From IMG/VR virus record IMGVR_UViG_3300037423_000411, positions 1 through 64,000 of that record: a DNA stretch of 64,000 nt, one strand, 5' to 3'. Below the pieces are notes generated by a model. It worked only from the letters and a program-made list of their open reading frames with translations. It made no database searches and was not told where the DNA came from. Of this stretch, positions 7,999 to 57,136 are shown one piece after another (position 1 is the stretch's first letter; each line of letters opens with the position of its first letter). The stretch is from a virus. The translations under genes were made by a program, and so were the position numbers.

Positions 7999-8053
7999 AA
8001 CCCCCTGAGCGACACATGCCTGGTGAGGCGTGGTCGATATGGCTCAGGGGGTT
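7999..8053 (-). ncRNA. single TIGR-like stem-loop unit
   Basis: CCCCCTGAG-CCA-TATCGACCA-CG-CCTCA-CCA-GGCATGTGT-CG-CTCAGGGGG. Confidence 0.75.
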
Positions 8054-8057
8054 GGTT

Positions 8058-8369
8058 TCAGTACTCCTTCGTCCAGCCGTCACGGCAGTACTTGCGGGCG
8101 GCCAGACGGTCGTGCTTGCGGTCGTTCGTGCCCCACCAGTTGATCTTGCTGCACCACCGGCAACCGCACTTGAAGAGCGGGCTGTGCAGCGCCTCCCAAG
8201 CGAAGGTCCAGTAGCACGCTTCGTTCGAACGCCACCAGTCGATGTTCATCGGCGTGGGCTTGAGAGGAAGGTCGCAGTAACCCTTGCGGTGGTCGTGCTT
8301 GTCCGTGATCCAGCTCGGGTAGAAGAAGGCCTTCACCTTCCACGGCTGAGTCTTGTCGGTCTTGCTCAT
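8058..8369 (-). CDS. basic Cys/His/Trp-rich protein, paralog of 8456-9121
   Basis: Starts MSKTDKTQPW and contains HDHR.G.C like its neighbour. Confidence 0.7.
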   Translation of the reverse strand: MSKTDKTQPWKVKAFFYPSWITDKHDHRKGYCDLPLKPTPMNIDWWRSNEACYWTFAWEALHSPLFKCGCRWCSKINWWGTNDRKHDRLAARKYCRDGWTKEY

Positions 8370-8455
8370 GAACGCGGTCACCTTTCGGTTCCGCCCTGCC
8401 CACCGGGCCTCTCCCGAGGGCTAGGGCCTGACTCGGTTCATGAGCACTCCTTCCA

Positions 8456-9121
8456 TCAGTACAGGTGCCACTGCACGCTGCGACGTCCCTGACGGTTCTC
8501 GAAGTCCCAGTCAGCCAGCTCGTCACCGGCGTTGTAGGCCTTGAGGTCCTCACGCAGAGAGTCGCGCTCACGGCGCCGCTCAGGGCCGTGGAACTCCATC
8601 TTGCACCACTCGGACAGGCTCTTGTTACGCGTGCCGTAGGCGGTCCAGTAACGCCAGCCGATGACCTCCCCGTACCAAGACGGGTCGCAGGTCGGGCGCT
8701 CAACAGCACAGACCTCGCAGTCGACGTTCTCGTGCTCGATCCAGCGCCGGTGCGGGCCAACACACTGAGTACTCCGGTACTCGTGGTAGGTCGGGCTCTC
8801 CGGATCGTAGTCTCGCCAGAAAGCCCAGCAGGTCGCCTCGTTCTTGAGGTTGTATCGCACGGGTTCTGCAGCATGCAGCCAACGGTATGACCAGGTGGTC
8901 TTGACGAACGGGTCTTTACGGGTGCAGTAGTACTCTTCGTAGTGCCCGTGCTTGGGCGAGCGCTTGTGCCGCCAGGTCGGCCGGTTGCTTCCTGCGTTGT
9001 AGTTACGGGCGTATTCGAGGGTCTCGATGACGCACTCACCGTGACGGTGGTCGTGACTGAGCGGGAAGCCCTCAGTGTGTCGGATCACCCAGTCCGGGCG
9101 GTCCTTGTCGGTCTTGCTCAC
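8456..9121 (-). CDS. basic Cys/His/Trp-rich protein, paralog of 8058-8369
   Basis: Starts MSKTDKDRPDW and contains HDHRHGEC. Confidence 0.7.
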   Translation of the reverse strand: MSKTDKDRPDWVIRHTEGFPLSHDHRHGECVIETLEYARNYNAGSNRPTWRHKRSPKHGHYEEYYCTRKDPFVKTTWSYRWLHAAEPVRYNLKNEATCWAFWRDYDPESPTYHEYRSTQCVGPHRRWIEHENVDCEVCAVERPTCDPSWYGEVIGWRYWTAYGTRNKSLSEWCKMEFHGPERRRERDSLREDLKAYNAGDELADWDFENRQGRRSVQWHLY

Positions 9122-9470
9122 TGTGCCTCCAAGGGCACAGCCGTGCGCGGCCTCTACCGCGTCTGTGTCCGGCTGCCTAAATCACCGGAGTCCTCCTTCC
9201 TCATCAGTACTCGCCCCACGTCCGGATGTCCGACAGCTTGACCTCGAAGGTCGCTTCGGTCTCGTCACCGCGCTTCGGCGCCTGCGGGTGCTTGACCCAC
9301 AAGACCAGCACCGTTTCGTTGACCATCGCCGCGACAATCTCTGCCGCAGACGGGAGCTTGAGTTCGTCCTTCAGCTGCTGCCTGCTCAGCCGAACCTTGA
9401 CCACGTCTGTCAAGTCTGCCTCCTTCGTGAGAGTGAGTACAGCTTGCCAGAGGGAGGTGACAGCTGTCAA

Positions 9471-10364: not shown

Positions 10365-11335
10365 CAGCTCGACACCTCCTCGATCACGCTCCGCAGCTCC
10401 TGCAGAACCAGTTGGTCAAGATTCAGCCGCTCGGCGTGCGCGACTACTTCCTCGACAGTGAGGTTGTCCAGTGTGACCTGTCCGACCTCTTCGAGGAACT
10501 CCGATACTCGCGATTGACGTTCCTCTTGTGCTTCCTTGATATCCAGCCGGAACACCTCCTCAGCGGGCCTGTGAGGCACCTCCACGAGCGTGAACCGCTC
10601 GCCTACGACCTCCGAGTCCCAGACCGCGATGGTCGGCTTACGGCGCAACGTCGCCTCGTGCAGGCTGCCTCTCGACAGTGCCCCCATGTTGCAGAAGGTC
10701 ACAGTCGGCACCTTCGTCCGGTAGACGCCGTGAGAATCGTGGATGTGACCGTAGAGGCAGTCTCCGACCAGCATCAGATTGGCCCAGTCCTCGGCCGCGA
10801 TGAAGTCGTAAGGAGGCTCCTGGCCTGGCGGGAAGATCGGCGCATGCGTCACGAGCAGAGGAATCCAGCTCATGTCCTTCAGGTGCCGCTCGTCGGCCCA
10901 TTGCCCGTAGTCCTTGAGCAGGTCCGGCAACCTCTCCCAGTTCGCCTGATACGGCAGCCCGTAGACGGGGAGCGTCGGGTGCGGACCGATCAGTAGCTCG
11001 ATGCCTTCGGCCTTGGCCAGCGTACCGATCGGCTGACTCGGGATCGTCTCCAGCCGGTCATGCGAGAGATCGTGATTGCCAGGAACGATGTACACCGGCA
11101 GACCTGCTGAGGTCAGGACGTCAGCCGTGCGCTGGACAAGCTTGTGCGAAGTTCGATCTGGTCTCTTGATGTGGAAGATGTCCCCGGCCTGAATGACGGC
11201 CTCGCAACCGCGCATCTTGCCGATCTCGACCGCGAGCTGGAGCTTCGTCAGTACGTCTTCGGCGTAGTCGTCGGTCCTGAGCGACGGAGCACGGTCAGCT
11301 AAGTGAACGTCGTTGATCAGCAACAGCTTGGTCAC
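10364..11335 (-). CDS. Mre11/SbcD-like metallophosphoesterase nuclease
   Basis: NDVH, AGDIFH, PGNHD, VTH and YGHIH motifs. Confidence 0.9.
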   Translation of the reverse strand: MTKLLLINDVHLADRAPSLRTDDYAEDVLTKLQLAVEIGKMRGCEAVIQAGDIFHIKRPDRTSHKLVQRTADVLTSAGLPVYIVPGNHDLSHDRLETIPSQPIGTLAKAEGIELLIGPHPTLPVYGLPYQANWERLPDLLKDYGQWADERHLKDMSWIPLLVTHAPIFPPGQEPPYDFIAAEDWANLMLVGDCLYGHIHDSHGVYRTKVPTVTFCNMGALSRGSLHEATLRRKPTIAVWDSEVVGERFTLVEVPHRPAEEVFRLDIKEAQEERQSRVSEFLEEVGQVTLDNLTVEEVVAHAERLNLDQLVLQELRSVIEEVSS

Positions 11336-15462: not shown

Positions 15463-15509
15463 GACTCGGCCGCGCTTCTATGGGCTGCGGCAGGAAGATA
15501 GGCCGAGTC
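15463..15509 (-). ncRNA. variant TIGR-like unit (CCT first box)
   Basis: GACTCGG-CCT-N16-CCA-N10-GCCGAGTC. Confidence 0.55.
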
Positions 15510-15866: not shown

Positions 15867-16107
15867 CGGCCAGAGCGACGAAATTATGGGCTGTGCGTAG
15901 TTACCTGGCCCTGGCCGGGCCTTGTGCTGAGCGGCATCTTTTGGTTCTCGAATGGAGCTGGCTCAGCAAGATCTTGAGTTGTCCGACGACTGAGGCGGAC
16001 AGATTTTGGTTCCTCGACTTCATTTGGCCTCAGCCAGATCTTGAGTTGTCCGACGACTTGAGGGGCGAGCGAATCTTGGCTTCGCATAAATCTCATGGCC
16101 CCTCAAG
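15867..16107 (-). ncRNA. TIGR-like stem-loop array, 4 units
   Basis: Units at 15867-15917, 15926-15967, 15990-16033 and 16057-16107, each stem-CCA-N14-16-CCA-N9-10-stem. Confidence 0.85.
15969..16058. repeat. exact 23-bp direct repeat used as inter-unit linker
   Basis: AGATCTTGAGTTGTCCGACGACT at 15969-15991 and 16036-16058. Confidence 0.95.
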
Positions 16108-16407
16108 CATCACGCTACGCGCGCACCTCTCGCGTGATCTTTCCCTGATACCTGTATGAAGGTGATCCGGGAGTGGCGAAGGGATGCAGAGGCAGAAGCC
16201 CCCTACCCCCAGAAACCGACTGGTTTCCCGGTGTAGAAGGACTCCTACGTCAAGCTGCATGAAGTATGACCGTTCAGCGGCTCGGGTACGCAGTCGTCGC
16301 CCCCTTTGCCTTCACGTACGGACTTCGGGCCGAGAAACGACACAACCCCTGTCGCGGATTAGCCGGGCCTCTGAAGGCGTTGCATATTGGCGACAGGGGA
16401 AGGTGGC

Positions 16408-17100: not shown

Positions 17101-17210
17101 TCGGCCCGGACTGGCGCTCCCACCGTGGGAAGCGTTACTACGATGGCCAGTCCGGGCCGAAGAAAGTGACCTCGCGCCGGATACACGGGTTCCGAGATGA
17201 CATGGCGAGG
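17101..17210 (-). ncRNA. TIGR-like array, 2 units
   Basis: 17101-17160 (15-bp stem, CCA-TCGTAGTAA-CG-CTTC-CCA-CGGTGGGAG-CG) and 17170-17210 (CCA/CCG boxes). Confidence 0.8.
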
Positions 17211-17211
17211 C

Positions 17212-17658
17212 CTAGTTCAAGAGCACGCCTTCGAGCATTCCGTCTTCCCGACGATAGACCACCATCAGGAGCTGACTGCCTCGCAGCATCCTCAGGCAGC
17301 CGCCACAAGGCTCGTCAGTCACGTAGATCGTCGCGTCGCGACGGTCTTCCTGGTCACTGTACATCACCGCATTTTGCTCAGCGTGCAGTGCGATGCAAGA
17401 CCCAGCGCCGGTGTCGTACGAAGAAGGCAGCTCAGAAGCCCCAGGAGGCAGCTCTGAGAGGCTCAAGAGGCCCCGAGGACACTCGCCCTTGAGGCAACTC
17501 TTACCACCCGCAGGCCCGCCGTTGTAGCCCGTTGCAACGATACGCCGGTCCTTGACGATGACAGCCCCGACCTGACGTCGGGTGCAATCGGCTCTCGCGC
17601 TGACTGCCTTCGCGATGCCGAGAAAATACTCGTCCCAGTTCGGGCGTTCAGGGCTCAT
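17212..17658 (-). CDS. dCMP deaminase
   Basis: CTRRQVGAVI, TGYNG, HAEQNA, PCGGC. Confidence 0.93.
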   Translation of the reverse strand: MSPERPNWDEYFLGIAKAVSARADCTRRQVGAVIVKDRRIVATGYNGGPAGGKSCLKGECPRGLLSLSELPPGASELPSSYDTGAGSCIALHAEQNAVMYSDQEDRRDATIYVTDEPCGGCLRMLRGSQLLMVVYRREDGMLEGVLLN

Positions 17659-20912: not shown

Positions 20913-20985
20913 TGGAGCTGAGGGGACTCGAACCCCTAACCGTCTGCTTGCAAAGCAGGTGCTCTACCAGTTGAGCTACGGCCCC
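20913..20985 (-). tRNA. tRNA-Ala (anticodon UGC), CCA end not encoded
   Basis: GGGGCCGTAGCTCAACTGGTAGAGCACCTGCTTTGCAAGCAGACGGTTAGGGGTTCGAGTCCCCTCAGCTCCA; cloverleaf with G3:U70 identity pair. Confidence 0.95.
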
Positions 20986-21086: not shown

Positions 21087-21255
21087 GTCAACCCTCAACG
21101 GCGGACATTTACTGGGCATCTCTTAGGTTATGGCCGTTGAGGGTTGACCTCGGCATGCGTGTAGATCTTTGGCGCAAGCGACCATCTTCTGACGCACCGA
21201 GCTTGGTTGACCGGGCGGTAAGGTGTGGGCTTCGTTCACTTGTGGCCCGACCAAG
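21087..21255 (-). ncRNA. TIGR-like array, 3 units
   Basis: 21087-21148, 21149-21201 (degenerate, TCA box) and 21202-21255. Confidence 0.8.
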
Positions 21256-22226: not shown

Positions 22227-22342
22227 AACCCCCTGAGCAGCGAGTTATGGGCTTCGTAAGCTGCTGGCTCAAGGGGTTTGCTTCAGAAGAGCCCTTGAAG
22301 ACGTCGGTCACTGGAGAAACGGCAAGTTTTGGTCTTCAAGGG
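22227..22342 (-). ncRNA. TIGR-like array, 2 units
   Basis: 22227-22278 and 22292-22342, both CCA-N8-CG-N4/5-CCA-N8-YG inside stems. Confidence 0.8.
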
Positions 22343-23096: not shown

Positions 23097-23224
23097 GCTG
23101 AGCAAAATGACATGGTTTTCGGCAGTGACTGGCTCAGCAGGACCATCGTCTCAAACGGAGGTTACAACTGTCAACTACGGGACGCGCTCGTTTTGGGTGT
23201 CGGTTCCATGTGGTCCCGTAGTTG
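23097..23224 (-). ncRNA. two TIGR-like units flanking a promoter
   Basis: 23097-23138 and 23172-23224 on either side of the palindromic -35 box at 23160-23175. Confidence 0.8.
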
Positions 23225-23228
23225 AGTC

Positions 23229-31873: not shown

Positions 31874-32100
31874 TCAACCCCCTGAGCGTGAGCGTGTTGG
31901 GTTCGCTCGATACCCGTGTGGCTCAGGGGGTTGATTCGGAGGCGTCGGGTCAGTGGTTACACGACACGTCTGTGGCCTCCCGTAAAAGGCCCCCGAAGCG
32001 GGGTCATCTTGGGTCTCGACGCAAGTTGGCTTCAGGGAAAAGTTGTGACCTCCTGAGCGGCTTCCTTCTGTGTGAAGCACAACCCGGCTGGCTCAGGAGG
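31874..32100 (-). ncRNA. TIGR-like array, 4 units
   Basis: 31874-31934, 31938-31980, 31991-32037, 32049-32100. Confidence 0.85.
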
Positions 32101-32364
32101 TGGTCCGGTGAATCGGGCAGTCAGGATCTGGCTGACAACGGCATTGTCGCTGTCTGCGCTGCTTCTTCTGCGTCTCGTAGTCCGCGAACGCTGCCGCTCC
32201 GACGACTATCAGCAGTGTCCCTGTGAACAGCACCGCGATCGCCAGCGACCACCCTCCGAAGACGTACTCCAACCCGTTGAAGAGCCCGACACCGATCACG
32301 ACGCTCACGGCACGAAACACCATCCGGCGTCTCATCGTGCTCATCATGACCGTTGAATCGACCC

Positions 32365-32688: not shown

Positions 32689-33366
32689 GATCTGTCTCCT
32701 TCAGCGGTGAGAGTCGCTTACAGGGACAGAATGCCAGTCAAGGTTACAGCTGTCAACCCTCAGACAGGCGCGAGCCCCTGAACGCGGCAGGCACGCTAGA
32801 ACACGTCAGGGGCTCGGCGAAGGAAACCTTATCGGGTCCCTGACCGGTTGCAACAACCGGTCTGTCCGACTTTCGTGTTCCAACCTCACGATCGTACAAA
32901 CCCGCAGGTCAGGAGCTTGTAACGACCACCGAAGCGGTTCTGACCCACAAGTAACCAGCCAGTATCGACCGATTCTTGCAGACGCTTGCTACACGCTCAC
33001 GATCGACGGTTCTTCGCCCACGGCTCACGCTTCAAGGCCTCGTAGTAGACCGTCCTCCCGAGCGCGTGTACACGTCCCAGCCGCATCTGATGCCGATAGT
33101 GGTACCACGAGTCCCGAGCCTTCTCCCAACGACTCATGCCTGCCTCCTCCATGTACCGCTACCTCGCGTCATAGGTGCGAGATCGTAGCAACCCCCCAAC
33201 CTAACCGGTCACAGTTCTGTCTCGACTACCGAGCATGGACGAAGAACTCAGCCCCGAACTGCAAGAGGTCGCTGACCTGCTCTGGGAAGCAGCACACGGC
33301 GCTCCACCGCTCGTTGAGGACAAGGTCTGGTGGATGGCTGTGCGTCGAGGCTTGGGAGCGTGAGAA

Positions 33367-33578
33367 CACCCTCTGAGCGACGTCCTATGAGTTGTGTAAG
33401 GAGGCTGGCTCAGAGGGTGCTTGAGGCGAGTCGAGGCGTCTATGGAAGACACTGTTCGGTTGGACTCGCCCCCTCAGACGTGGCGACGGATTTATGTGCC
33501 TAGTCGGCGTATTGGCCTCGCCTGAGGTCTGACGGACCTGAGCGCGAAAGTTTGGCTTCCCGTACGGTATGGCTCAGG
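33367..33578 (-). ncRNA. TIGR-like array, 4 units
   Basis: 33367-33419, 33425-33470, 33473-33526, 33537-33578. Confidence 0.85.
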
Positions 33579-35068
33579 CCCTGCTTGAGCTCCCTTCAGG
33601 CAATGGATCTATGGTCCTCGCTTGGCGACTGGCCCGAAGGGAAGTTCTGTCCTCGCTGCGGGGAAAACCTGGTGCCCCGTCAACGCATCACTCATGGCAG
33701 CGAGGAAGCTTGGTTCCCGCAGACGAAAAACATCCTGGGTATCGGCAGGACTTGGTCTGCGGGAAGTCTCTAGTGCGTCTTACCCCACTGACGCAGCTTC
33801 TCAAGCATCGTAGGGTGTGTCAGCACGTCGTGCACGTAGGTCGCCTTCAGGTGCAGCCTCTCGGACTCAGGCAGGTTCCCCAGCCCTGGCATCCCCGGCG
33901 CGATCTCCTGCTCGAAGTACTTGCGCGCCAGCTCCTTGTCCACCGCAAGCGCACCGAGCGCAGCTTGCGTCGTCCCGTAGTGCACGCCCTTGTTGAACGC
34001 CCACATCCAGCACTCGCGCATCTCTTCGCCGAACGTGTCCTGCCGATCGAACTGCTGCTTGGCCTCTTCCTCCATCTCGAAGAACTCGTCCAGGTTCACC
34101 TGTTACCTCCTCTCCCACGCGTTGGTCGCGAAGCAGTCGGCACACGGCTTGGCCTGCGTACAGTACGGCAACGGCAGCATGATGAGGAACAGCCTGACGA
34201 GCACGTAGACCTTGCCTCGGTACGTGATCATGCCAACCCCTTCCTACGCCGGTTGTGCAGCTCCGCGATCGCGTACGCACGTGCCTTGTCCTGCCCCATC
34301 CCGATGCTGACGTAGCCGTCCTTGTAGTCCTTCCCCCAGCCGAGCGCGATGCACTCGTTCAGCGTCAGGTCCGCAGGATCGATCTCTGTCATCGCTCACC
34401 CCCGTCAGGCTCGGTCTTGTCTTGCACACGCGCTCGTAGCGTCTGTACGACGTACCTAGCGCCTTTCGGCAGTGCGTTAGGCCCGAAAGTTCTTTCCCGA
34501 GGCTGTATATCAAAATGCCTCTGGAGACGATCACGCAAACGGCCCTCTCCCGAAGCGTCAGAGGTCACTTCATGCCTGGTCATGTCAGCTCTTCTCCTTC
34601 CGTGCTCTACGTGCCTGCAGGTACTTCGTGATCCCTTGCCCTCGGTGCTTGAACTGCCAGGCGCAATACAGCGTCATCAGCGACGCGAGGTTGAACCCTA
34701 CGAAGTTCATCGGGTGATCGGGGAAGTACCTCGGCCCTACCGTGAACGCACCCTGTATCAGCGCTCCGACCGTCGCCATGACCCCGTAGAGGATTCTCAT
34801 CGGTACCTCCACTTGCACAGCACGATCGTCGGCCGCTTCAGGCACATGTCTTCCACCGGCTTGTACGGCTCCCACGACAGACCTCCCAACCACGCAGGCC
34901 TGCCACCCAGCATCCGCGTGCCCTTCGGAAGTACACCCCACGTCCGCGACCACTTCGTACCGAGCACCGTGATCGCGTGACCCCCTACGAACCGACTGTG
35001 CTTCTTGATCCGTACCGGGAGGCGTTTCTGTCCTGGTTTCAGGCTCTCCTGCCACAGCTTCAGCCTTG

Positions 35069-36330: not shown

Positions 36331-36387
36331 GAAGCCTCCGAGCGGAGGGTTATGGGTTCGTACCCTGCGGAGTGGCTCGGAGGCTTC
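36331..36387 (-). ncRNA. single TIGR-like unit
   Basis: GAAGCCTCCGAG-CCA-N17-CCA-TAACCCTC-CG-CTCGGAGGCTTC. Confidence 0.75.
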
Positions 36388-37172: not shown

Positions 37173-37200
37173 GGCTTGAGGATCGTCCTCCTATGACGAA

Positions 37201-37258
37201 TCCCGCTCCGAGCTTCGCGACATTGGGGATGACGCTTGTTGGATGGCTCGGAGCGGGA
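37201..37258 (-). ncRNA. single TIGR-like unit
   Basis: TCCCGCTCCGAG-CCA-TCCAACAAG-CG-TCATCC-CCA-N10-GCTCGGAGCGGGA. Confidence 0.75.
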
Positions 37259-37582
37259 CGATCTGGATTCAGTTCAGCTTGGCGGTCTCGCGTGCGACGA
37301 TCTCGCCTGCCTTCTTCACGCCGTCCGCACGCTTCGCGAACTCGTGCACGTCGCCCCGAGTCTCGCTGGCCCAGTCGTTGACCAGATACTTGTTCCCTGT
37401 CAGTTCGACGTAGGGCTTCGGCATCGTCACCAGAACCGCGACGGTCTTGCCGTTGACGCTGAAGTGCTGCACGGTGCGCCCGTACTTGTCGCGAGTCTTG
37501 TACTGAGTGACGGTCGCGTTCATTTGGTGCCTCCGAGGTGAGAGTCTCGATCTGCCCTTGCGAGTTCTATAGTGCCGTACTG

Positions 37583-37598
37583 GGTTACAGCTGTCAAC
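37583..37598 (-). promoter_or_regulatory. class I promoter: TTGACA -35 inside a 16-bp quasi-palindrome (representative of about 14 copies)
   Basis: GTTGACAGCTGTAACC; copies start at 9456, 16796, 21077, 23160, 28141, 31863, 32742, 36303, 37583, 38774, 41350, 48990, 53271, 57551, nearly all with an NANNNT -10 at 17-18 bp. Confidence 0.85.
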
Positions 37599-38190: not shown

Positions 38191-40778
38191 GATGTTTGCC
38201 TCCTCGTGAGAGAGATCTGATTCAGTACGCCTGAGCTTCGACGGCTGCTTTGACCAGCGTCTGCAGGGCCGCATCTACGATCTTCGGATCTGATCCCTTG
38301 GCGCCCGACAGGGCATACAGCGAACGACGCCCCAGGAACCCGTCAGAGCCCGCGTAGCGGTATTCCAAACCGAACTGTGCGGCGTAGTCGACCATTCCGA
38401 CAACCTCGTGCTGACGAACCGAGATCGTGACCACAACCGGCTTACCTTCGAAGGTGGCTACGTGCACGACTCTCATCGGTTCGCACGCTCTTCCTGAGCC
38501 TTGTGCAGTTCGGCCATCTTCTGCTGCAGCTGGTCGGTCATCGCGTCGCACGCGTTCTTGACCTCTTCGGCGGCCTTGGTCCAGGAGGCTTGCACATCCT
38601 GAGCAACCAGCTCCTGGTCGGCCTTTCGGCCACGAGCGGCCAGTTGAGCATCCGTCTCGGTCAACCGACGCCACCTGACGATGTCACGCCTGCGGTCGCT
38701 TGCTTTGCTCATGATTGCCTCTTTCGGGGTGAGAGACCCGTTGTTGCCCTGACTTCTTCAGGATGCCTCATTGGGTTACAGGTGTCAACCCTTAGACATG
38801 CTTGAATCGAGATCACCTGAGATTCGGTGTCTCGATCTGATGTTTCGGAGGCTTCGTCTCGCGGTGCCTGAAGTCGGTCTGTCCGTCTTGTGCGATGCGA
38901 TCTGATGTGCAAAGGCATGCCTAGAGGGGCTTGTCTGCCGACTGAATATGGCCTTGCACGAGCCTGTATGAAGTTGCCTTGAGTCCCCGCCTGTTCGGCC
39001 TTGATCTGCGGTACTTCTGAGCCTGAAAGTTGCCTCGGAAGGCTGTGGCGTCAGTTCTTTCGCGCTTGATCTGGCGTACTAAGTGCCCGACTGATCAGAA
39101 GCTTACCGCACGCGAGGTGATCCTGTGTAGAGGCGTCTCGTGTGGCGTGCGGTAAGTGCTCTGACCTGCAGGTTTGTCTCTCTCGCGTGGTGCATTGGTG
39201 TGTACGGAGGAGGTATGGCGAGAGGACGGATCTGAACTCACGCGGTGTGCATTGGGGTGTCTTGATCACGGATGGCGTGAGTGTGACTCGTTTTCTCTCA
39301 GAGTGACTCGTGAGGATCTCAGGAGGGGGTTTTTACGCTCAGCGGACCTTTCGGCCTCTCTTGTCCACATGCCTGCTTACTTCATGTGTGAACACTGCCT
39401 GATCGAGTTGAGCCTGATCTACCTGTGTGACCTTGAGGACTGGTTCGTGTCCTCTCTTCGCTACCAGCTTTGCGCCTAGTGCTAATCGTGCTTTGACTTG
39501 CTTGTGATAGTTCTCCGACTTCTTGTTCATCGTTGATTCCTTCCTGTGTGTTGACGGTTGTCACTCTCGTTTGAGTGAGAATGGCTTTTGGTAGTCACTT
39601 GATTATGAGAGTGACTGTCATGTTTTTCTCTACGGGTGTAGAGGGTTCGATCTGACTGCTTCGATGTTCGAGTTGATGAGTCGGCTGAGGTAGGTCCCTG
39701 CCTCCTGATACGAGTTTTCCCTGATGGCGAGCAAGAAACCCTGCAGCAGAGGGAGAGCTTCGTACGCGTTCAAGGTGGTGCGCAGTTGAAGCTGTACGGT
39801 GAGATCTACTGTCTGTTTCATCGTGAGGTGTGAGCACAGAGCGAGATCCTGTGCGGCGAGTGCCCAGCTGTAGTTCTCTTGAGGCATCCCCTGTGTAGCT
39901 GTCACTCCCCGAGCTTCCTTTCGAGATACTCCCTGAGCGTTGCTACCTGCCCTGCAGGGAGGTTCGGAGCGACTCTGTGCAGCCTGATCCAGTCGTAGTG
40001 CTGACCTGTCCTGATGATCGCGTGAGAGCCGCATGAGCAGTGTGCGCGTCTGAGATCTGTTCTCAGGATGTCGAGCCTGAGCAAGTTGTGCTCAAGTACG
40101 TGATCTGCTCGGTAGGGCTGCCTCATCTTCAGTACGTCCCTAGTGCGTCTTCGATGTCCTTGATGCCTTCGACCGTGTAGGTGGTGCCGTCAGCACAGAT
40201 CACCATCCAACGATCTGTGCTCTCGTAAATCGCCTTGTAGAACACTTGGCTTGTGAGATCCCACGAGTCGGTGAACCCGAGATCACTCAAGACTCTGCGC
40301 TGCTCAGGCGTGAAAGTGCTGTTGGACAGGCTCACTGCTTCTCCCACTGGTACGGGTAGGCATCGTGCATCATCCCCATGACGTCCTTGAAGCATCCACA
40401 GCACAAGTAGGCCGTGAGTGGGTGGAACGGGATATCGGTGGTCTCCTCGATCTTGTGAGCGGCTGGTGCGTTACAGCTGTTGCACCTCTCCTCACGCGCC
40501 CAGACAGGGAAAGGATGGTCTGCACGATCGTCGGTGATCATCTCGGGCTGCATGAGCTTGGCCCTGCTGATCAGGATGCTGTCGAGCAGAGGTGAGCCGG
40601 TGATGCTTGGCTTGGGTTGATCTGTCATCTCTGCAGCTCCCTGTTCGCCTTCTCCAGCGCTTTGTCGACCTGACTGAACCCACCCGCTTGTAACCCTCCA
40701 CAGCGACCACCAGAGCCCGTAGAAGCTGTCTGTAGTCCGCACCTGGTTCCCAGTCGTTGGTCATGCTCTACGTACGGC

Positions 40779-40807
40779 AAAACCCCCGAGGTTCGATCGG
40801 GGGTTTT
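40779..40807 (-). terminator. intrinsic terminator-like hairpin overlapping a class II promoter
   Basis: AAAACCCCCGA-TCGAACC-TCGGGGGTTTT. Confidence 0.7.
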
Positions 40808-41300: not shown

Positions 41301-41316
41301 AGCGGTGAGAGTCGCT
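41301..41316 (-). promoter_or_regulatory. start-associated ACTCTCAC hairpin (representative of about 18 copies)
   Basis: AGCG-ACTCTCAC-CGCT just 5' of the RBS; stems covary between copies. Confidence 0.8.
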
Positions 41317-42539: not shown

Positions 42540-43502
42540 CTACTTGATCGTCTGTTGACACAACGGACATGTTCCTGCCTCCTTCAGTGTCTCGTGTAGT
42601 TCCTGTTCGGCTTCCTGAATGTGGATCTCCAGGTCGTTGATCTCTCGTTCCTTCTCAGCCCTGAAAGCAACCTGTGCGTTGTACCGCTTCGCCCAGGACT
42701 CAACTTCGTTGATCTTGGCCTCGACCTCTTCAAGGTCTTGCATGTCCCCCGCAACCGACTTGAGGAGACTGGTCAGCTCATCGGCCTTGGCCTGAGCACT
42801 GACGATGAGACGCTGTGCGCTCGTGTAACGGCCTGAGAGGTCTTCAAGCTGAGTGATACGTGAGGAGGCGTCAATGGCCGCAGAAAGCAGCTCTCGTGCC
42901 TCCTCGACAGCCTTCTTGCGTGTGCCGAGATCGGCATACTCGGTCTTCACGCGAGTCACTGCCGCATCAGCGTCCTTGCGCCTGATACCTGCGAGCTTCA
43001 GCATCTCCTGTCGGCGCCTGTTGGCCTCTCTGGCGGCCTCGGCAAGCATGCTGACGTTGGTGAGATCGCCCAGCACCTTCGCGGTAGCTGAGCCTGTCTC
43101 TGCCAGCAACCAAGGGCTGTCGAACTGCGTGCTGAAGAACAGGTCAGGATCGCCCTCAGGCGTCTTCAAGACCTTCTGCACATCGGCAGGGACTGTGGTG
43201 CCGCACTTCGCGTACAGCTCACTGTGCCCGTGCTCGTTGACCAGCTTGTAAGAGCTGACACCCTTCCCACGCTCCAGCTCTACCGCTGTGCCGTCGCTGT
43301 ACGTCAGTCTGAGCTTGGCTGAGGTCTTTCCTTTGCTCACGTACCCAGGACTGATGCTGTTACGTGAGACGGCCTTCAGTGCCCTACCGAACGCGCTCTT
43401 GCCTGAGTTGGAGTGCCCAACGACCACAGTCAACTTGCCCAACGGGATCTTCACGTCGTACAAGGACTGGAAGCTCTCTACCGCAAGCTCGCTGATGGTC
43501 AT
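42540..43502 (-). CDS. Rad50/SbcC-like ATPase, N-terminal half ending in a Zn hook
   Basis: VESFQS, Walker A VVGHSNSGKS, Q-loop STQFD, coiled coil, terminal CPLC. Confidence 0.85.
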   Translation of the reverse strand: MTISELAVESFQSLYDVKIPLGKLTVVVGHSNSGKSAFGRALKAVSRNSISPGYVSKGKTSAKLRLTYSDGTAVELERGKGVSSYKLVNEHGHSELYAKCGTTVPADVQKVLKTPEGDPDLFFSTQFDSPWLLAETGSATAKVLGDLTNVSMLAEAAREANRRRQEMLKLAGIRRKDADAAVTRVKTEYADLGTRKKAVEEARELLSAAIDASSRITQLEDLSGRYTSAQRLIVSAQAKADELTSLLKSVAGDMQDLEEVEAKINEVESWAKRYNAQVAFRAEKEREINDLEIHIQEAEQELHETLKEAGTCPLCQQTIK

Positions 43503-43507
43503 GCTTT

Positions 43508-43515
43508 ACGTACGG
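43508..43515 (-). promoter_or_regulatory. class II promoter -10 element CCGTACGT (representative)
   Basis: Copies at 7988, 11643, 16314, 24205, 40770, 43508, 57064, 59938; four lie 5-6 nt before an ATG. Confidence 0.7.
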
Positions 43516-43731
43516 ACTTCGAGCCTCAAATCGGCAGACAGTCCCAGTGCACGTACCCCTGCCACTTCTCATGGCGAGTGATCAGCTCACCTTCTTTGAC
43601 AGGGTGATCCCCTGCGTCACACCACGAATCGAACGGTGACGGGAACACCTCACGCCGGTGCCTCGGATGCATGTCATCGATGATGAGCAGATTGATCTTC
43701 TGGCCGTCCATGTTTCTGCCTCCTGAAATGA

Positions 43732-43793
43732 GTGTGAGGTCAGCTTCGGGACTTTATGGGTTTCGTTCCCTTGTCTGGAAGCTGACCTCACAC
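43732..43793 (-). ncRNA. single TIGR-like unit
   Basis: 16-bp perfect stem around CCA-GACAAGGGAA-CG-AAAC-CCA-TAAAGTCC-CG. Confidence 0.8.
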
Positions 43794-43797
43794 GGTG

Positions 43798-43971
43798 TTA
43801 CGGCACCCTACGACGAACCCACGGACTCGGCCAGACGACACCGAGCAGGTAGGACAGAGCCAGGAAGAACAACCCAGCACCGAGCAGGTTGAAGTGCGTC
43901 GAGACGTCCACTCCAAACGTGTAGAGGAAGAAACACACAGCCGCGAGGACTGCGGAAACCACGCCTGCCAT
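43798..43971 (-). CDS. small two-TM membrane protein
   Basis: 57-aa MAGVVSAVLAAVCFFLYTFG...LGAGLFFLALSYLLGVVW, below the ORF track cutoff. Confidence 0.55.
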   Translation of the reverse strand: MAGVVSAVLAAVCFFLYTFGVDVSTHFNLLGAGLFFLALSYLLGVVWPSPWVRRRVP

Positions 43972-45064
43972 GATTACCGCTTGGTCGGGGCAAACGACGG
44001 GAAGCTCTCGCCGCCTACCTCAGGGTTGGCGTCACGGAAGACGTAGCCGAGACCGTCCTCACCGCGTGCATCGATCAGCGCCTGCGCGTCTTCCTGAGCC
44101 TGCTTGGCCGCAGCTTCCGCGCCGTTGTCGGGGGTAGCCGTGGTGCCGTCCTGCACAGCAGCCTGCTCGGCCTGAGCTTCGGTCACGACTCCCTGATCGG
44201 TGGTCTCGGCCGTGCGAGTACCGGTCTGGTCAGCTTCGACCGTAGGTACGTCAGGTGCAGCAGGCGCCGAGTACGCCGGTTCCGCGTTGTCACGTGCCAT
44301 CTCAAAATCTCCTTGGTCTTCGACCATGACGGTGCGCCATGCTCTCACTGGATCGGCCCCTACTTGCTATGTATGGATCGCCCGTTTTCCTGTTCCCACG
44401 CCTTAAAACGACGCTTGTCGTGTAGAAAATTCTCCACGAACCGGGTACCGAGGCAACACCATTGACCAGCTTTCGCCCGGCAGGAAGGGCAGTCGACCTT
44501 CAAGGCAGGCTGATGCTCCAGTGTCCTCATCTTCACGAGCGCCTGCTCTGCCCACCGTGGCGGATCGATCAGAAAGGCCTTCCGCTTGCTCGACCACTCG
44601 ATGTTCAAGACAGTCTGCCGCTTCGCTGCCATCTCGCTGAGATCTGCAACCTCACGAGGCTTCAGCTCGATAGGATCGCCCTTCTTCACTTCTGCACCGT
44701 GTTCCGTATCGCCGCCACTCGTGCACTCCGTGTCTTCGTCTTACCGTTGTCACGCGGCATGTCCCGGTACTTCTCAGCCCAAGCCTCGAACCGTGTGCGC
44801 TCACCTTCGTGTTCCTCGATCGCCTGAACCAGGTGCAGAGGACAGTAGTTGCCGGACATCGCATCGATGATGAGCATGGAACGCGTACTGGCGGCCTTGA
44901 GTGCGAACTTCGCACGCTTCCCGCACCGGTAGGCATCCGCCTTCCTCGGGTCGCCTCGATCGGCCTTCTTCACCCAGCCTTTCTGAGCACAGCACTGCAC
45001 ATCACCCGTGACCTCTTTGACCCAAGGACTGGCGAGAATCATCTCCCGCCAGTCCTTGTACTCG

Positions 45065-45847
45065 TCACTTGACTGTCTGACCATCCGGCTCGTCCTTCAC
45101 TCCGTGCAAGCGCCGGGATTCCTTCCACAGGCCCTTGAGCATTTCCTTGGACATCACCCGCAACGCGTCCGCGTGCCGGTGCCCATCGTTCCACGGTGAG
45201 CCTGGCTGTGCGGGCTTGCCTGACGGCCCGCAACGCACGCAGGGGTTCACATGCAACTTGCCCTCGGTGTGTGCCTTGCGCTTGTCGTACACCTCACGAT
45301 TGCCGGAACGAAGCATGCTCTCGGCAATCAGATAGGCCCGCGTCTTCGCGGTGGTCGACCAGTTGGCCTTCACACCCTTCTTGCGTCGCATCGCGTTGCC
45401 TTCGGCGTCCACGTGCAAACCGCAGTAGGCCCACAGCTGCGAGACCGTGCGCGGCTGACCGGTGTTGCCGTTGATGTACGGGTCACCGATGACACCGAGC
45501 AGACGCGCGGCCTGCTTGTCGCCCAGGCCTTTGATGCTCTTCACGTACGGGCCGAGCTTGTCGTTCTTCATGCGCTTGGTGAGCTGCTTGATCGCGGAGT
45601 CTTCCAGCTCCTTGAGCCCGTCGACCATCTGCGTCATGTTGCGCACGTCAGGGTGATCTGCGGTCAATCCGAACCCACGCTCTTCACCGTCCGAGTCGAC
45701 GGCGGTACGCGTGAGCTGCCGCAACCGGTTCTCGTTGGCGAGCCGCAGCCCCTCGATGTCATCCAGGATGATGGACGACAGTGCCAGGAAGGGATCTGCG
45801 AACGTCGCGAATGCTACTTCCTGTGCTGCATCGACAGTGTCTGTCAT
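45065..45847 (-). CDS. TasA-like Nop-domain (IS110 C-terminal-like) RNA-binding protein, no nuclease domain
   Basis: 260 aa; coiled coil, SIKGLGDKQAARLL, SQLWAYCGL, RRKKG...WS, YDKRK, HRHADALRVMSKEMLKGLW; no RuvC/DEDD or HNH; adjacent CCA/YG stem-loop array. Confidence 0.85.
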   Translation of the reverse strand: MTDTVDAAQEVAFATFADPFLALSSIILDDIEGLRLANENRLRQLTRTAVDSDGEERGFGLTADHPDVRNMTQMVDGLKELEDSAIKQLTKRMKNDKLGPYVKSIKGLGDKQAARLLGVIGDPYINGNTGQPRTVSQLWAYCGLHVDAEGNAMRRKKGVKANWSTTAKTRAYLIAESMLRSGNREVYDKRKAHTEGKLHVNPCVRCGPSGKPAQPGSPWNDGHRHADALRVMSKEMLKGLWKESRRLHGVKDEPDGQTVK

Positions 45848-45872
45848 TTGGGTGTGCCTCCTTCTTTGGTTG

Positions 45873-46089
45873 CCCTGAGCGCGGCGAAACCTGGGTATCA
45901 ATATCCTTTGGCTCAGGGAAGATTGTTGCCCAAGGCGATGAACTTTGAGTGCTGTGGGGAATTTGGCCTCGGGAGTTCTGGACTCAGCAGCGTGCACTCG
46001 ATGGGTGAGAGCAGATGTGTTGGCCGCTGAGAAGTTTGAGCGGGGCAGCTGACGAATACTCTTGGGCGATCCTCGGTTCCTGGTCAGCT
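45873..46089 (-). ncRNA. TIGR-like stem-loop array, 4 units, directly upstream of the tasA-like gene
   Basis: 45873-45918, 45929-45973, 45983-46031, 46047-46089. Confidence 0.88.
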
Positions 46090-46094
46090 CAGAA

Positions 46095-46649
46095 TCAGGC
46101 AGCCGTTCCGAGCACCTTCAGGTGCACCTCGATCGGCAACTCTCCGAAGGTCTTCACGTCGTACTCGGTGAGCAGAGCCGCGTAGCCGTGGAACCGAGCC
46201 GCCCACGCCTTGTTGGCCTCGGCAAGCTTCTCGCGCTGCTTCGCCGCGTGCATGAGATCGTCGTACGTGCAGTCCTTGAGGAACTTGTAGTCACCCTGAC
46301 CGATGCTGATGCGATCACGCAGATGCTGCTGCCAGCCGTCACGAATCGCAGCGACCTTGGTGCTCGTGGTCGTGGACTTGATCCCACCAGCGTGCTTGCT
46401 GTTCACGATCTTCGGGAAAGCCGACGCCGGGGGCATGTTGGAACGCGTCCGCGTCGTGCCCAGGTAGTGCCGGACGTAGTCGATCAGCAGCACTTCGAGC
46501 ACCTCGTGATAACGCGCCTTCGGGATACGTTTCAGTATCTCCTGCATGATCTCGTGAACATCGGTGAGATCGGTGTTGTTCAGGATGTCCGTCAGGATTC
46601 CCCTGAGCGTGAGCGTCGACATCAGTTCCTCCTGCAGTTGTGCCACCAT
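46095..46649 (-). CDS. hypothetical protein embedded in the TIGR-like locus
   Basis: 184 aa, AGGAGG RBS, TIGR-like units on both sides. Confidence 0.75.
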   Translation of the reverse strand: MVAQLQEELMSTLTLRGILTDILNNTDLTDVHEIMQEILKRIPKARYHEVLEVLLIDYVRHYLGTTRTRSNMPPASAFPKIVNSKHAGGIKSTTTSTKVAAIRDGWQQHLRDRISIGQGDYKFLKDCTYDDLMHAAKQREKLAEANKAWAARFHGYAALLTEYDVKTFGELPIEVHLKVLGTAA

Positions 46650-46677
46650 TTCGTTTACCTCCTACAACGTTTTAATT

Positions 46678-46726
46678 CCCGACAACAAAGGTCGTATGGG
46701 TAACCGAGAGGAGCTTGGTCGCCGGG
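46678..46726 (-). ncRNA. single TIGR-like unit
   Basis: CCCGGCGA-CCA-AGCTCCTCT-CG-GTTAC-CCA-TACGACCTT-TG-TTGTCGGG. Confidence 0.8.
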
Positions 46727-47258
46727 AAACCCCTGGTCATGCTTCCTGAGTGTTCGTCCAGCCTGCGTAAGTCACTTCAGCCTCGTAACCACAGTTGACG
46801 CACGTGTGTGTGGTCTCCGGTGCCTCAGTAAGGTCTTCGGCCTCGTACACACCCTCAGGAGCGACGAACTCGACCTCTTGTGTGGTCTTGCACATGGCAC
46901 AGTCCACGAGCTGTGAGAGCCGCAGAGGCTCCTGGTCTCGGTCTTCAGGGTCTTCGTCCACACGTGCCATGAGATCTAACGTTCCTCGCCGGTAGTAGTC
47001 ACTGAATTCTGGCGTCTTCATCAGGCTCGCCTGCCGGGTTGTAGAGCACCCAACCAACCTGCATCGCCGCAGAGATCATGCGATCTACGATCTCTTCACA
47101 CATGTCCATCCGCTCACCCACGAACTCGTTGCTGTCGCCGTACTGGTCCTCAAAGAGAGACTCGGCCATCGCCTTGCGTGCAGGATGATGGCGTACGGCA
47201 CACAGCTGGCAGCCTTCCGGGCTGCCGTACTCCTCAGGGTCGTGCAAGCAGTCGACGT

Positions 47259-54446: not shown

Positions 54447-54820
54447 CCTCGCCTCGCTTTCCTGCTTGCGTACGTCGTGCAAGCACGACAAGTGCGCTTG
54501 CCTCGATAGACTCTCGTGTTTTCTTCGGTGTACTCGTGACCGCGAGGACAGTGCGTCTTGTTGGCGAACCCGTTGCGGCCCTTCATGTCACGATCTCGGT
54601 TGTTGTCTCCGACAGTGCCCTCCACCAGATGCTCAGGATTGACGCAAGGCGGATTGTCACAGGTGTGCATGATGCAGAGCCTGTAACCAGGCAAACGGCC
54701 ATGAGTGTCGATCCATACCAAGCGGTGAGCAAGCTGGACAACGGAACCGAAGCGACGCACCTTCACGATCCCGTATCCAGCCTTGTTTCGGTTGCCTTCC
54801 CACTCGATGCAATCGCTCAT
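54428..54820 (-). CDS. HNH endonuclease
   Basis: LAHRLVW, HTCDNPPCVNPEHL, DN; KTHCPRGH and CRAC Zn-binding tail. Confidence 0.9.
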   Translation of the reverse strand: MSDCIEWEGNRNKAGYGIVKVRRFGSVVQLAHRLVWIDTHGRLPGYRLCIMHTCDNPPCVNPEHLVEGTVGDNNRDRDMKGRNGFANKTHCPRGHEYTEENTRVYRGKRTCRACTTYASRKARRGCPEQF

Positions 54821-55509
54821 GCTGGTCGCGCCACCCAGCTGTAACCTTCCCCGTAAGGGATGTCGTCTCCGTGGACATAACCCACGGCCTCAAGCTCGTC
54901 CTCGACTTCCCTGCGGTTCTCAGGGCCTACGATGAAATCGTGCATCTCCACCAGTAGCGTGGGCTGAAACTCCATCAGCGTCTTACGAGCACCCTTCAGG
55001 ACCCGCTTCTCAGCTCCTTCCACATCGATCTTGATCATGTCGACGCGCGCCAGATCCTCGTGCTTGAGAAGCGTGTCAAGCTTGTCGGCCTGAACCGAAC
55101 CCCACTCAGCGGCAGGAATGCAGCGCCGTGAGCCGCCTGAAACCTTGTCGTTGGGGTCCACCATGTCGAGCCGTGTCTTCTTGTTCCAGGCAGCTGCGTT
55201 GATCGTCGTGATCTTCGATCCGAGATCGTTGAGGAGGATGTTCTTCTCCAACTTCTCCCACGTCGAGAAGTTGGCCTCGATCGCGATGACCTGCTCGGCC
55301 TTGCGTGCCAGCTCCAGCGCGTACAGACCCACATGAGCGCCGACATCAACGAACACCCCGCCCTTGGGGAACGCGAACAACGCCATGTTCACGATGCCCA
55401 TCTCGTGCCCGAGGATAGGAAGATGATCGTCGGTTTCCGGGCCTTCGTAGTGCCACTTCAGCCCTGTGGGGCCTACGGCAACGGTTCCCGGTAGCAACTT
55501 CTCAGTCAT
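54817..55509 (-). CDS. FkbM-family SAM-dependent methyltransferase
   Basis: FVDVGAHVG, AIEA, MIKIDVEGAE, LLVEMH. Confidence 0.9.
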   Translation of the reverse strand: MTEKLLPGTVAVGPTGLKWHYEGPETDDHLPILGHEMGIVNMALFAFPKGGVFVDVGAHVGLYALELARKAEQVIAIEANFSTWEKLEKNILLNDLGSKITTINAAAWNKKTRLDMVDPNDKVSGGSRRCIPAAEWGSVQADKLDTLLKHEDLARVDMIKIDVEGAEKRVLKGARKTLMEFQPTLLVEMHDFIVGPENRREVEDELEAVGYVHGDDIPYGEGYSWVARPA

Positions 55510-55734
55510 CTTCCACTCCCACATCAACGAGCTGAGCATCATAAGGAAGCTTCAAGTCAGGAGCTACCAGAGGCTCGAACGCCACCACGGGAACCTGCAT
55601 CGTCACCCTGACAGCCCTAGCGTGCTTGGGCTTCTTCTGTGTGAACCCCACGACCTTCGCGCCAATCACTTCGTAGTCGTCCCAGATCGGTTCGATGTGC
55701 AGATACACGCTGACCGTTACGTAACCAGGCGCTG

Positions 55735-56991
55735 TCACATCAGCTCACCTGTCTTCATGTTCACCTTGTTGCCTCCCTCAGGAACGTCCAGGAAGTCGGA
55801 CACGTCCTGCTCTTCGTCGTCCAGCTCCTGTGACTCAGCGACAGACAGTTCCGTGACATCACCAGCGATCTCGACACCGAACTTGTCGTACTTGGACCCG
55901 TCGACCTTCTCCATGCCCTTCTGAGCCAGCACCTCTACGGCCTTGGCTTCCAGCGTCTTCAGCCAGTCGGTCCGGTACTCCAGAGCTTCCAGCTGCTTGC
56001 TCTCACCCTTCGGCACGTCGAAAGGAGGAGCTAACTCGTTCGGGTACTTGTAAACCCCCGCGCTGGCCTTGACGATGCCTTGAGCAACCAGGTAGCTCAG
56101 TACCGCGTGAGGCTGTGAGAACCCCTTGCCGAAGCGCACCCGCAGCTCAGCTGTGCGGAACGGATCGCCCACCTTGTTCTTGAGCACCGTGACCTTGGTC
56201 CGCACCGACGTCGTCAGGTTCTCTTCCTGCTCGGTGAGTTCGTTCTCACCCTTCTCCTTAACGTTACCGATCTGCTGGAACTCCATCCGGAGCGAGCCGT
56301 AGAAGGGGAGAGCCTTGCCGCCAGGAGAGGTCTTCTGCTTGATCCCTTGAGCCGCCATGCGCTGACCCATCGGGGTGAGATCTGCTTTGTCCATGACATG
56401 GTTCAGGAAGACAGCCGCGCAATCGGTCTGCTGCAGCTTGCCTACGATCTGACGGCAGAACTGGTGCATGAGCTTGGCTCGCTCCATGACCTCGGCCGTA
56501 CCGGTGTCGGACTCGATCTCGCGCTTGGTCACCATCGACGCCACCGAGTCGAAGATGCCCATTCCAAGCTCTCCGGTGTCGAGAAGCTTCCGGAACAGGT
56601 TCGCTCCGTGCTCGAAGTTCTTGGGCCAGAGGTAGATGAACGAAGGGTCCTTCGTGTCGATGCCGAGCGCCTGTGCGTAGTCCTTGTCGAGTGCGTACTC
56701 GTAGTCCACGAACATCACATAGCCACCAGCCTGCTGCAGCTTCGCAGCGGTCTGCAATGCACACGTGGTCTTGCCGCTCGACGGCGGACCGATCAGCTCG
56801 GTGATACGTCCCTTCGGGAGCCCTCCGACGCCCGTCACAGCGTCCAGCAGGAGGTTGCCCGTAGTGAGACCCTCAACCGGCTTGAACTCCTCCAGGACGC
56901 CGATAGGCTCCTTGTCCTTACCCGTACGCAGCTGAGTCAGCGTCTCCGCAAGCGTGAGCTTCTTCGGCTCGGCTTTCTTCTTAGGTGGCAC
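55735..56991 (-). CDS. recA: RecA-family recombinase
   Basis: GGLPKGRITELIGPPSSGKTT, FDSVA, PGGKALPFY, KNKV. Confidence 0.95.
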   Translation of the reverse strand: MPPKKKAEPKKLTLAETLTQLRTGKDKEPIGVLEEFKPVEGLTTGNLLLDAVTGVGGLPKGRITELIGPPSSGKTTCALQTAAKLQQAGGYVMFVDYEYALDKDYAQALGIDTKDPSFIYLWPKNFEHGANLFRKLLDTGELGMGIFDSVASMVTKREIESDTGTAEVMERAKLMHQFCRQIVGKLQQTDCAAVFLNHVMDKADLTPMGQRMAAQGIKQKTSPGGKALPFYGSLRMEFQQIGNVKEKGENELTEQEENLTTSVRTKVTVLKNKVGDPFRTAELRVRFGKGFSQPHAVLSYLVAQGIVKASAGVYKYPNELAPPFDVPKGESKQLEALEYRTDWLKTLEAKAVEVLAQKGMEKVDGSKYDKFGVEIAGDVTELSVAESQELDDEEQDVSDFLDVPEGGNKVNMKTGELM

Positions 56992-57092
56992 CCTCAATCC
57001 CTTCGTCTGGTGAGAGGCGCGAAGAACCAGGGCTTACGCCGCCGTTGAATGGCCTCTCATCACACGTACGGACTTCGGAGACAAGATCTGCA

Positions 57093-57136
57093 CAGAGGCG
57101 AATGCCTTAGGGGTGACGCTCCTTGTATGGCCTCTG
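57093..57136 (-). ncRNA. variant TIGR-like unit upstream of the recA promoter
   Basis: CAGAGG-CCA-TACAAGGAG-CG-TCACC-CCT-AAGGCATT-CG-CCTCTG. Confidence 0.65.

Follow-up and report, generated by a model that had tools for sequence, protein, structure and literature searches.

Can the guide RNA genes of one RNA-guided effector be scattered over an entire phage genome? The question is raised by IMG/VR record IMGVR_UViG_3300037423_000411, the genome of an uncultured soil phage that carries one gene for a Tas protein, the effector of TIGR (tandem interspaced guide RNA) systems, together with many small hairpins that resemble TIGR guide units (tigRNA genes) and mostly lie far from tas. The stretch analysed here comprises positions 1 to 64,000 of that record, referred to below as the window; the genome is complete at 133,696 nt (direct terminal repeats, CheckV 100%). 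Our favored answer, to which we assign a probability of roughly 0.6 on sequence evidence, is that these hairpins represent true stem-loop tigRNA genes belonging to a single TIGR-TasA system, dispersed as solos and small arrays over about 22 intergenic gaps.

To define the units, we started with the order of their parts. Read on the minus strand, a unit consists of a stem arm, CCA, 8–9 nt, CG or TG, a linker of 4–6 nt, a second CCA, another 8–9 nt, CG or TG, and the second stem arm. This grammar is the stem-loop rule of TIGRFinder, which calls for a box C (CCA and others), a 9-nt spacer, a box D (TG or CG), a gap no longer than 15 and a stem no shorter than 5 (Xu et al., 2026, preprint, 10.64898/2026.09.09.750476). 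A search of the complete genome with the strict pattern, which required a stem of 5 bp or more and permitted G-U pairs, yielded 25 units, 23 of them inside the window; every one was on the minus strand, and the plus strand had none. Shuffled controls did not match this, as 100 dinucleotide shuffles gave a mean of 1.46 for both strands summed (about 0.7 per strand) and a maximum of 5. With no stem required, the loop grammar had 55 minus-strand and 118 plus-strand matches. Of the former, 25 were flanked by a stem of 5 bp or longer (8 bp or longer in 20); of the latter, none was. The loop grammar predicts stems on the coding strand only.

A covariance model (R1) trained on 20 strict units and run unfiltered gave 32 minus-strand matches in the window that outranked the first plus-strand match (16.4 bits), 14 of them outside the training set; beyond the window, four more minus-strand matches reached 18.4 bits or higher. 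Model and inspection together gave a curated total of 47 units, 41 in the window and six outside it. The initial annotation of the window, made from the letters alone, had listed about 33 units at about 15 sites. All 33, in 17 coordinate groups, proved to be minus-strand units: with model scores of 17.1 bits or more, 27 surpass the plus-strand best, and the unit at 31938 passes the strict pattern, while five (15463, 16371, 21155, 33472 and 46047) are degenerate and were accepted from context. The list was too short, as eight more units lie in the window (33590, 33650, 33714, 38912, 39102, 39180, 39236 and 57008). The observation of dispersed minus-strand units is confirmed, slightly undercounted at first. 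It had also been predicted that repeat finders would miss them, and this holds for Tandem Repeats Finder, which at score 30 returned 15 rows for the window, none touching a unit. No unit had a gathering-level match in an Rfam search of the window, whose sole gathering-level match was a tRNA gene.

The boxes are well kept across the 47 curated units. CCA occupies the first box C in 43 units and the second in 35, and CG or TG occupies the first box D in 39 and the second in 44. Spacers range from 7 to 10 nt, with 86 of the 94 being 8 or 9 nt, and they are the variable part: information at spacer positions is 0.02–0.30 bit, and the claim that no spacer pair is repeated stands, all 47 pairs being unique. 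Their GC content is 47%, compared with 64.6% in the stems and 59.7% in the genome. Stems of 4–16 pairs differ in sequence from unit to unit; a proposed preference for CTGAG, said to underlie many of them, applies to nine of the 47. In a model-fitted alignment of 35 units, standard pairing was found in 99.3% of 280 stem cells, as against 59.9% after column shuffles (0 of 500 reached the observed value) and 27–43% with the partner slid by 1–3 columns. Both sides change at seven of the eight stem pairs of this alignment, in agreement with the suggestion that the stems covary, and the last box D guanine is paired with the box C cytosine in 35 of 35 aligned units. The closing stem is retained in the minimum-free-energy fold of all 47 units, and for naked RNA the folds also contain a median of 7 predicted pairs within the loops, to which we attach no meaning. 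Contigs from four soil/rhizosphere DNA runs were compared over 27100-47099; the fitting pieces among those listed were identical to the window, with no differences inside units, and thus offered no natural variation for a test of compensatory change.

Two further features concern how units are built. CTT is found at the 5' stem base of 13 of the 47 units (p ~2e-4) and at the 3' base of 12 (p ~6e-4), against a background of 8.8%; although confined to a minority of units, the enrichment is consistent with the CUU motif that Xu et al. report at tigRNA processing sites, albeit less marked. The second is a 30-nt direct repeat (15962-15991 and 16029-16058, 97% identical) that covers the linker and a stem arm of two adjacent units. 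These two units have different spacers on a common scaffold, which is expected if spacers are parts free to differ. The repeat also hints at unit multiplication or spacer exchange.

The tas gene is, as initially noted, the only one in the genome. Its 260-residue product matches NCBIfam NF052498 (TIGR_Tas_endo) with 203 bits against a cut-off of 100. A profile of this Tas and 18 relatives matches TasR (9mty, E 3.4e-20) and TasH (E 4.3e-6) in the PDB, and the alignment to TasR is confined to residues 143-268, behind the RuvC part of TasR. An AlphaFold2 model (pLDDT 83) has long N-terminal helices followed by the Nop part, and Foldseek placed it closest to TasR 9mty and TasH (TM 0.61–0.68), with IS110-type recombinases next. 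Searching Pfam with the 260 residues gave no match and no nuclease family. We conclude that this is, as predicted from sequence and fold, a TasA-type protein without a nuclease. Several relatives in our alignment A3 (P0008, P0017, P0018, P0026 and others) carry long low-complexity N-terminal or internal insertions that are absent from the phage's Tas.

Next, we considered where the units lie with respect to other tas genes. Tas relatives are common among actinobacterial phages and prophages, an occurrence from which we judge the host to be probably an actinobacterium, and the closest of them (P0001-P0005) are 76–87% identical. Neither a megablast of the phage collection with 4 kb of sequence surrounding tas nor a RecA-based search for relatives in IMG/VR returned a match. 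Our comparison set consisted of 160 tas loci with flanks of up to 10 kb (1.9 Mb, not de-replicated). Of the units that the strict pattern detected in these loci, 828 share the strand of tas and 10 are opposite to it; 794 of the 828 (96%) are within 1.5 kb of the gene. In this phage, by contrast, the distance to tas exceeds 1.5 kb for 21 of the 25 strict units and 10 kb for 20. Only 4–6 of the 47 curated units are near the gene, and the rest, many of them solos, are found in some 20 other gaps at distances of up to about 88 kb. The usual arrangement beside or within the gene applies only to four units upstream of tas and to the solos at 46676 and 43732.

The covariance model, too, detects units in most other tas loci, all on the tas strand among the matches listed (300 of 351). 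Some of its matches elsewhere are inside tas coding regions (locus positions 10400-10600), which fits the intragenic tigRNAs of Xu et al. When 15 large tas-bearing viral records were scanned whole, nine (G004, G006-G009 and G011-G014) had matches within a few kb of tas, four (G002, G003, G010 and G015) had 1–5 distant matches, and one (G001) had scattered matches. Record G005 (locus L147; 110,163 nt) encodes a Tas relative (62% over the best segment) with an upstream partner gene, and no match was found when it was scanned whole at E ≤0.1; it has either a different unit grammar or is a case of the 'arrayless' Tas.

G001, a complete IMG/VR genome of 145,489 nt reached through locus L157, has one tas gene and 31 strict units, of which 29 are separated from tas by over 1.5 kb and 23 by over 10 kb. 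G001 and our phage have just 3 of 113 proteins in common, and the layout thus arose, or is kept, in unrelated phages. Each genome has its own unit habits. Distal and proximal units of our phage have CTGAG stem ends and CCA-N8-CG in common, and those of G001 show GACGG/GGCGG stem ends (25 of 31), a fixed box-to-box distance of 18 nt, 9-nt spacers and TG. Such local habits, common to distal and proximal units, tie the distal ones to the resident Tas.

We also related the units to the genes. Of 219 gene calls, 191 are on the minus strand, and all 47 units are intergenic and co-oriented with the genes. The first unit of a site starts 3–9 nt past the upstream stop codon in about 15 cases, which fits co-transcription with the mRNAs, and at many sites the last unit ends 16–35 nt before the next start codon. 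Units are placed at operon ends, within operons and in one leader, and 41 of the 47 are in the non-structural half of the genome, among genes for a sliding clamp, RecA, a CCA-adding-type nucleotidyltransferase, and radical-SAM, HD and phosphoesterase proteins. Within the window they occupy 15 of the 49 gaps of at least 60 nt, a fraction that carries little weight given crude gene calls. A promoter-like, partly palindromic motif (TTGAC, 3–5 nt, TGT-N-A-N-C, then a -10-like hexamer about 10 nt on) occurs 16 times on the minus strand and twice on the plus strand. At five copies the 3' arm of a unit overlaps or abuts TTGAC, and the unit at 23097 lies just downstream of such a motif. All sites are collected in the table.

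Table. Units, promoter-like motifs and system genes in the phage genome (bits are covariance model scores).
Feature	Position	Strand	Evidence and remarks
Solo unit	7999..8053	-	strict pattern; 31.4 bits; 4 nt past upstream stop codon
Degenerate solo unit	15463..15509	-	13.2 bits; second half canonical, first half overlaps promoter-like motif
Four canonical units (15867, 15925, 15987, 16056) and a degenerate one (16346-16399)	15867..16399	-	strict pattern, covariance model, parsing
Two units (17101-17160, 17168-17212)	17101..17212	-	strict pattern; 26.5, 18.1 bits
Three units (21087-21148; 21155-21197, degenerate; 21207-21254)	21087..21254	-	strict pattern, covariance model; degenerate unit missed by the model
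Two units (22227-22278, 22292-22342)	22227..22342	-	strict pattern; 31.3, 23.0 bits
Two units (23171-23225, 23097-23138) flanking promoter-like motif	23097..23225	-	strict pattern; 32.0, 24.4 bits
Four units (31874, 31938, 31990, 32048)	31874..32101	-	strict pattern, covariance model; 3' arm of last-transcribed unit overlaps TTGAC of promoter-like motif
Seven units (33365, 33423, 33472 (degenerate), 33534, 33590, 33650, 33714)	33365..33765	-	strict pattern and covariance model scan; 24.3, 30.1, 16.1, 31.4, 27.3, 12.0, 22.8 bits
Solo unit	36331..36387	-	24.6 bits; promoter-like motif 14 nt downstream of unit
Solo unit	37200..37259	-	23.4 bits
Four units (38912-38955 (weak), 39102-39156, 39180-39224, 39236-39282)	38912..39282	-	strict pattern (39180); 10.7, 21.1, 12.1, 20.5 bits
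Solo unit, 15-bp stem	43732..43793	-	strict pattern; 17.5 bits; 4 nt past upstream stop codon
tas gene, 260 aa, TasA-type (coiled coil and Nop domain, predicted)	45068..45847	-	NCBIfam, profile and fold matches
tas-proximal array of four units (45873-45918, 45929-45973, 45983-46031, 46047-46089 (degenerate))	45873..46089	-	25.8, 24.8, 30.0, 12.0 bits
Conserved 184-aa gene, phrog_4604, just upstream of tas-proximal units	46095..46649	-	phrog match
Solo unit	46676..46728	-	strict pattern; 23.3 bits; 8 nt past upstream stop codon
Two units (57008-57062, 57088-57141)	57008..57141	-	17.1, 29.6 bits
Six units beyond window	68709, 74141, 81522, 83855, 109102, 133279	-	covariance model and inspection
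Promoter-like motif copies in window	9470, 15532, 16810, 21091, 23174, 31877, 32756, 36317, 37597, 38788, 53285	-	
Promoter-like motif copies beyond window	65266, 68716, 83834, 84837, 89374	-	

Taken as guides, the units would travel as passengers in transcripts of the phage's own early and middle operons, most of them non-structural, and would be released through cleavage near the stem base. Each released unit would then be loaded on a TasA dimer, and its two 8–9-nt spacers would pair with opposite strands of a 16–18-bp DNA site. Such a site would be blocked, not cut, as TasA has no nuclease domain; Xu et al. describe TasA and dead TasR as RNA-guided transcriptional repressors. Our best guess, and only a guess, is that the targets belong to the chromosome of the host or to rival mobile elements, which seem more likely places than the phage itself. 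The initial annotation had proposed a distributed guide repertoire, cut from mRNAs and perhaps differing between infection stages, and part of that proposal is borne out: the hairpins are of the dual-spacer Tas type, dispersed, co-oriented with transcription and accompanied by one tas gene, and distal and proximal units have traits in common. A bolder version, which we offer tentatively, likens the system to small nucleolar RNAs (snoRNAs) hosted in other transcripts. About 50 guides would be carried in operon transcripts, their output tied to promoter and timing and their release equivalent to mRNA cutting, so that TasA might silence dozens of host or rival loci in stages. If this were true, 'arrayless' Tas lineages may keep their guides elsewhere in the genome.

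Several results weigh against the units being guides. The positional statements depend on gene calls that are crude and GC3-based (third-codon-position GC content). For 11 of the 47 units the covariance model gave a score lower than its top plus-strand match, or no match at all; they were accepted from context (stems, partial boxes, a position beside better units) and are probable, not certain, as true units. Units near tas are less canonical than many distal ones, and placement right after stop codons and at promoter-like motifs would also suit a cis-acting RNA element. Finally, no targets emerged. Since the two spacers of a tigRNA are reported to pair with adjacent stretches on opposite DNA strands (Faure et al., 2025, PMC12045711), we looked for joined sites of 16–18 bp in both arrangements, with full-length spacers and 8-nt cores, using mismatched A/B pairs as the control. 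The phage genome had no site without mismatch, and sites with 1–2 mismatches occurred at the control frequency; nothing exceeded the control in 2.2 Mb of related phage and prophage loci. Gapped half-sites made no difference (8+8, 0 versus 0.10 in the control; 7+7, 2 versus 1.3; 6+6, 23 versus 16.6), and spacer words were neither depleted nor enriched in the phage's own genome, with 23 of 90 8-mers absent versus 24.2 expected. One joined site with two mismatches is located at the tas start codon, which is within chance.

The main rival holds that the hairpins are Tas-bound cis-acting RNA elements, an alternative already raised in the initial annotation. TasA bound to a hairpin would control cleavage, stability or termination of the mRNA or translation of the next gene, and the spacers would be filler of fixed length. 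The orientation of every unit with the genes, the short distances to stop and start codons, the five units at TTGAC and the negative target search would all be accommodated. However, the boxes and the spacer lengths match those of proven guide systems, and the spacers are the sole hypervariable parts, even in the two units with the common 30-nt scaffold block. Furthermore, in most tas loci the units are beside tas and not among other genes, so that gene-by-gene cis control is not the usual job of this family. On balance we consider a cis-acting role unlikely, though it is the alternative that survives best.

The other explanations fare worse. The dispersed units might be decaying leftovers of former arrays that were split by recombination and are now unused, as the degenerate units at 15463, 16346, 21155, 33472 and 38912 could suggest; but the majority of distal units come closer to the canonical form than those near tas, stems are intact in all 47, and the unrelated G001 has a like layout with 31 strict units, which together make decay improbable. 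A temporal switch, in which TasA would be guided to silence the phage's own promoters or genes, would suit the presence of units in the non-structural half and near promoter-like motifs, and viral life-cycle regulation is among the possible roles given by Xu et al. Against it, neither perfect joined sites nor an excess of mismatched or gapped ones were seen in the genome; self-regulation under the published targeting rule is therefore unlikely, and we regard the switch as a whole as highly improbable. Least plausible of all are Tas-independent hairpins, either intrinsic terminators or repetitive extragenic or miniature inverted-repeat (REP/MITE-like) palindromes, which would explain GC-rich intergenic hairpins on the transcribed strand, but the loops of 30–39 nt and the rarity of TTTT (within 12 nt 3' of two of the 47) do not fit the short loop and U run of a terminator, no primary sequence is common beyond the Tas box motifs, the grammar tracks tas by strand in the 160 loci, and the covariance model found no match in the 110-kb G005 and none away from tas in at least nine further large tas-bearing records.

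The gene just upstream of the tas-proximal units encodes a conserved protein of 184 residues. In 90 of the 160 loci a homologue shares the strand of tas and is upstream of it, with the array in between and a median distance of 369 nt; homologues also occur in 10 further records that include gp71 of mycobacteriophage Pinto, actinobacterial prophages and phage G001. We regard the protein as a candidate accessory factor for this clade of Tas. Pfam gave only a match at E 0.06, and PDB searches by sequence, Foldseek and ESM Atlas returned nothing usable; the AlphaFold2 model (pLDDT 85) is without a fold match in the PDB.

Two other observations concern the surroundings of the units. The tRNA gene (20913-20985, minus strand, Rfam 65 bits) is about 100 nt downstream of the units at 21087..21254 and their promoter-like motif. 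In addition, a CTCTCAC-like word recurs in leaders (~23090, 15455, 43725 and 33360), where it follows a unit or promoter and precedes the next gene's Shine-Dalgarno sequence, and it is also present after several promoter-like motifs.

How does this system compare with known ones? The units of this phage have the architecture that Faure et al. describe for stem-loop arrays. Published stem-loop loci with TasA-like proteins (PlTasA from Peromyscus gut, PMC12045711; BlTasA and CsTasR, 10.64898/2026.09.09.750476) likewise combine a Nop-domain Tas without a nuclease with units in which a variable palindromic stem encloses two short spacers, each between a box C (CCA) and a box D (UG or CG). There too, conservation of the stem is limited to a few nucleotides by the boxes, CUU, which only a minority of our units have, occurs near the stem base, and units are on the tas strand. 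By every sequence trait but one, the phage system is classed as stem-loop TIGR-TasA; the exception is that its units are not arrayed beside tas. In the published loci, arrays are upstream of, downstream of or inside tas, or form sub-arrays about 450 nt apart, and stem-loop arrays have a mean of about 7 units (17,756 tigRNAs in 2,559 arrays; Xu et al.), compared with 47 units here.

Individual phages show both layouts. Mycobacteriophage Pinto (cluster A, NC_024368) encodes a Tas about 50% identical to ours (gp70, annotated 'transposase') with the homologue of the 184-residue protein, gp71, upstream. Some five units can be seen by eye in the 334-nt gap upstream of its tas, one of which passes the strict pattern. 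Outside that gap the pattern gives only matches with 5–6-bp stems, so that Pinto, unlike our phage, has a compact layout. G001 is alike in having one tas and scattered strict units; it differs in being an unrelated phage with units on both strands, conserved GACGG/GGCGG stem ends, 9-nt spacers and mostly TG in box D.

What appears to be new is the dispersed layout, whereas the stem-loop TIGR-TasA kind itself is known. The initial annotation knew of no such layout, and this agrees with the accounts of Faure et al. and Xu et al., which describe arrays around tas and in which we did not find genome-wide dispersal, although supplements or TIGRSafari may list distal units. The survey of Xu et al. 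covered flanks of up to 10 kb (median 5.4 kb). If guides can sit anywhere in a genome, tas-centered surveys undercount guide repertoires, and the question of 'arrayless' Tas posed by Xu et al. becomes testable through whole-genome scans with unit models. Forty-seven different guides and a nuclease-free effector would point to a multi-target silencing program, and this phage would then offer a natural test bed for TIGR targets.

A looser likeness is found with VIPR, whose solo or orphan vrRNAs (Lopez et al., 2026, 10.64898/2026.10.15.759431) also belong to a phage-borne RNA-guided silencing system and are set apart from, or occur without, the effector gene. VIPR guides have GGYNN repeats and work with the Vipr protein, and the solos are on other elements, as decoys or weapons, whereas our phage carries its own effector. 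We thus regard VIPR as a conceptual parallel only.

A likeness in layout is seen with the box C/D snoRNAs of archaea and eukaryotes, which are also dual-guide RNAs with a box C, a box D and a Nop-domain protein, and whose genes are dispersed and often cut from other transcripts. What these snoRNAs guide is RNA methylation, in which fibrillarin, L7Ae and kink-turns are employed. None of fibrillarin, L7Ae or kink-turns is present in the phage system, and the likeness is therefore one of layout and not of membership. Faure et al. set tigRNAs, clustered in regular arrays, against 'sparsely distributed' snoRNAs. A dispersed layout embedded in the transcripts of host genes, as proposed here, would remove this contrast between clustering and dispersal.

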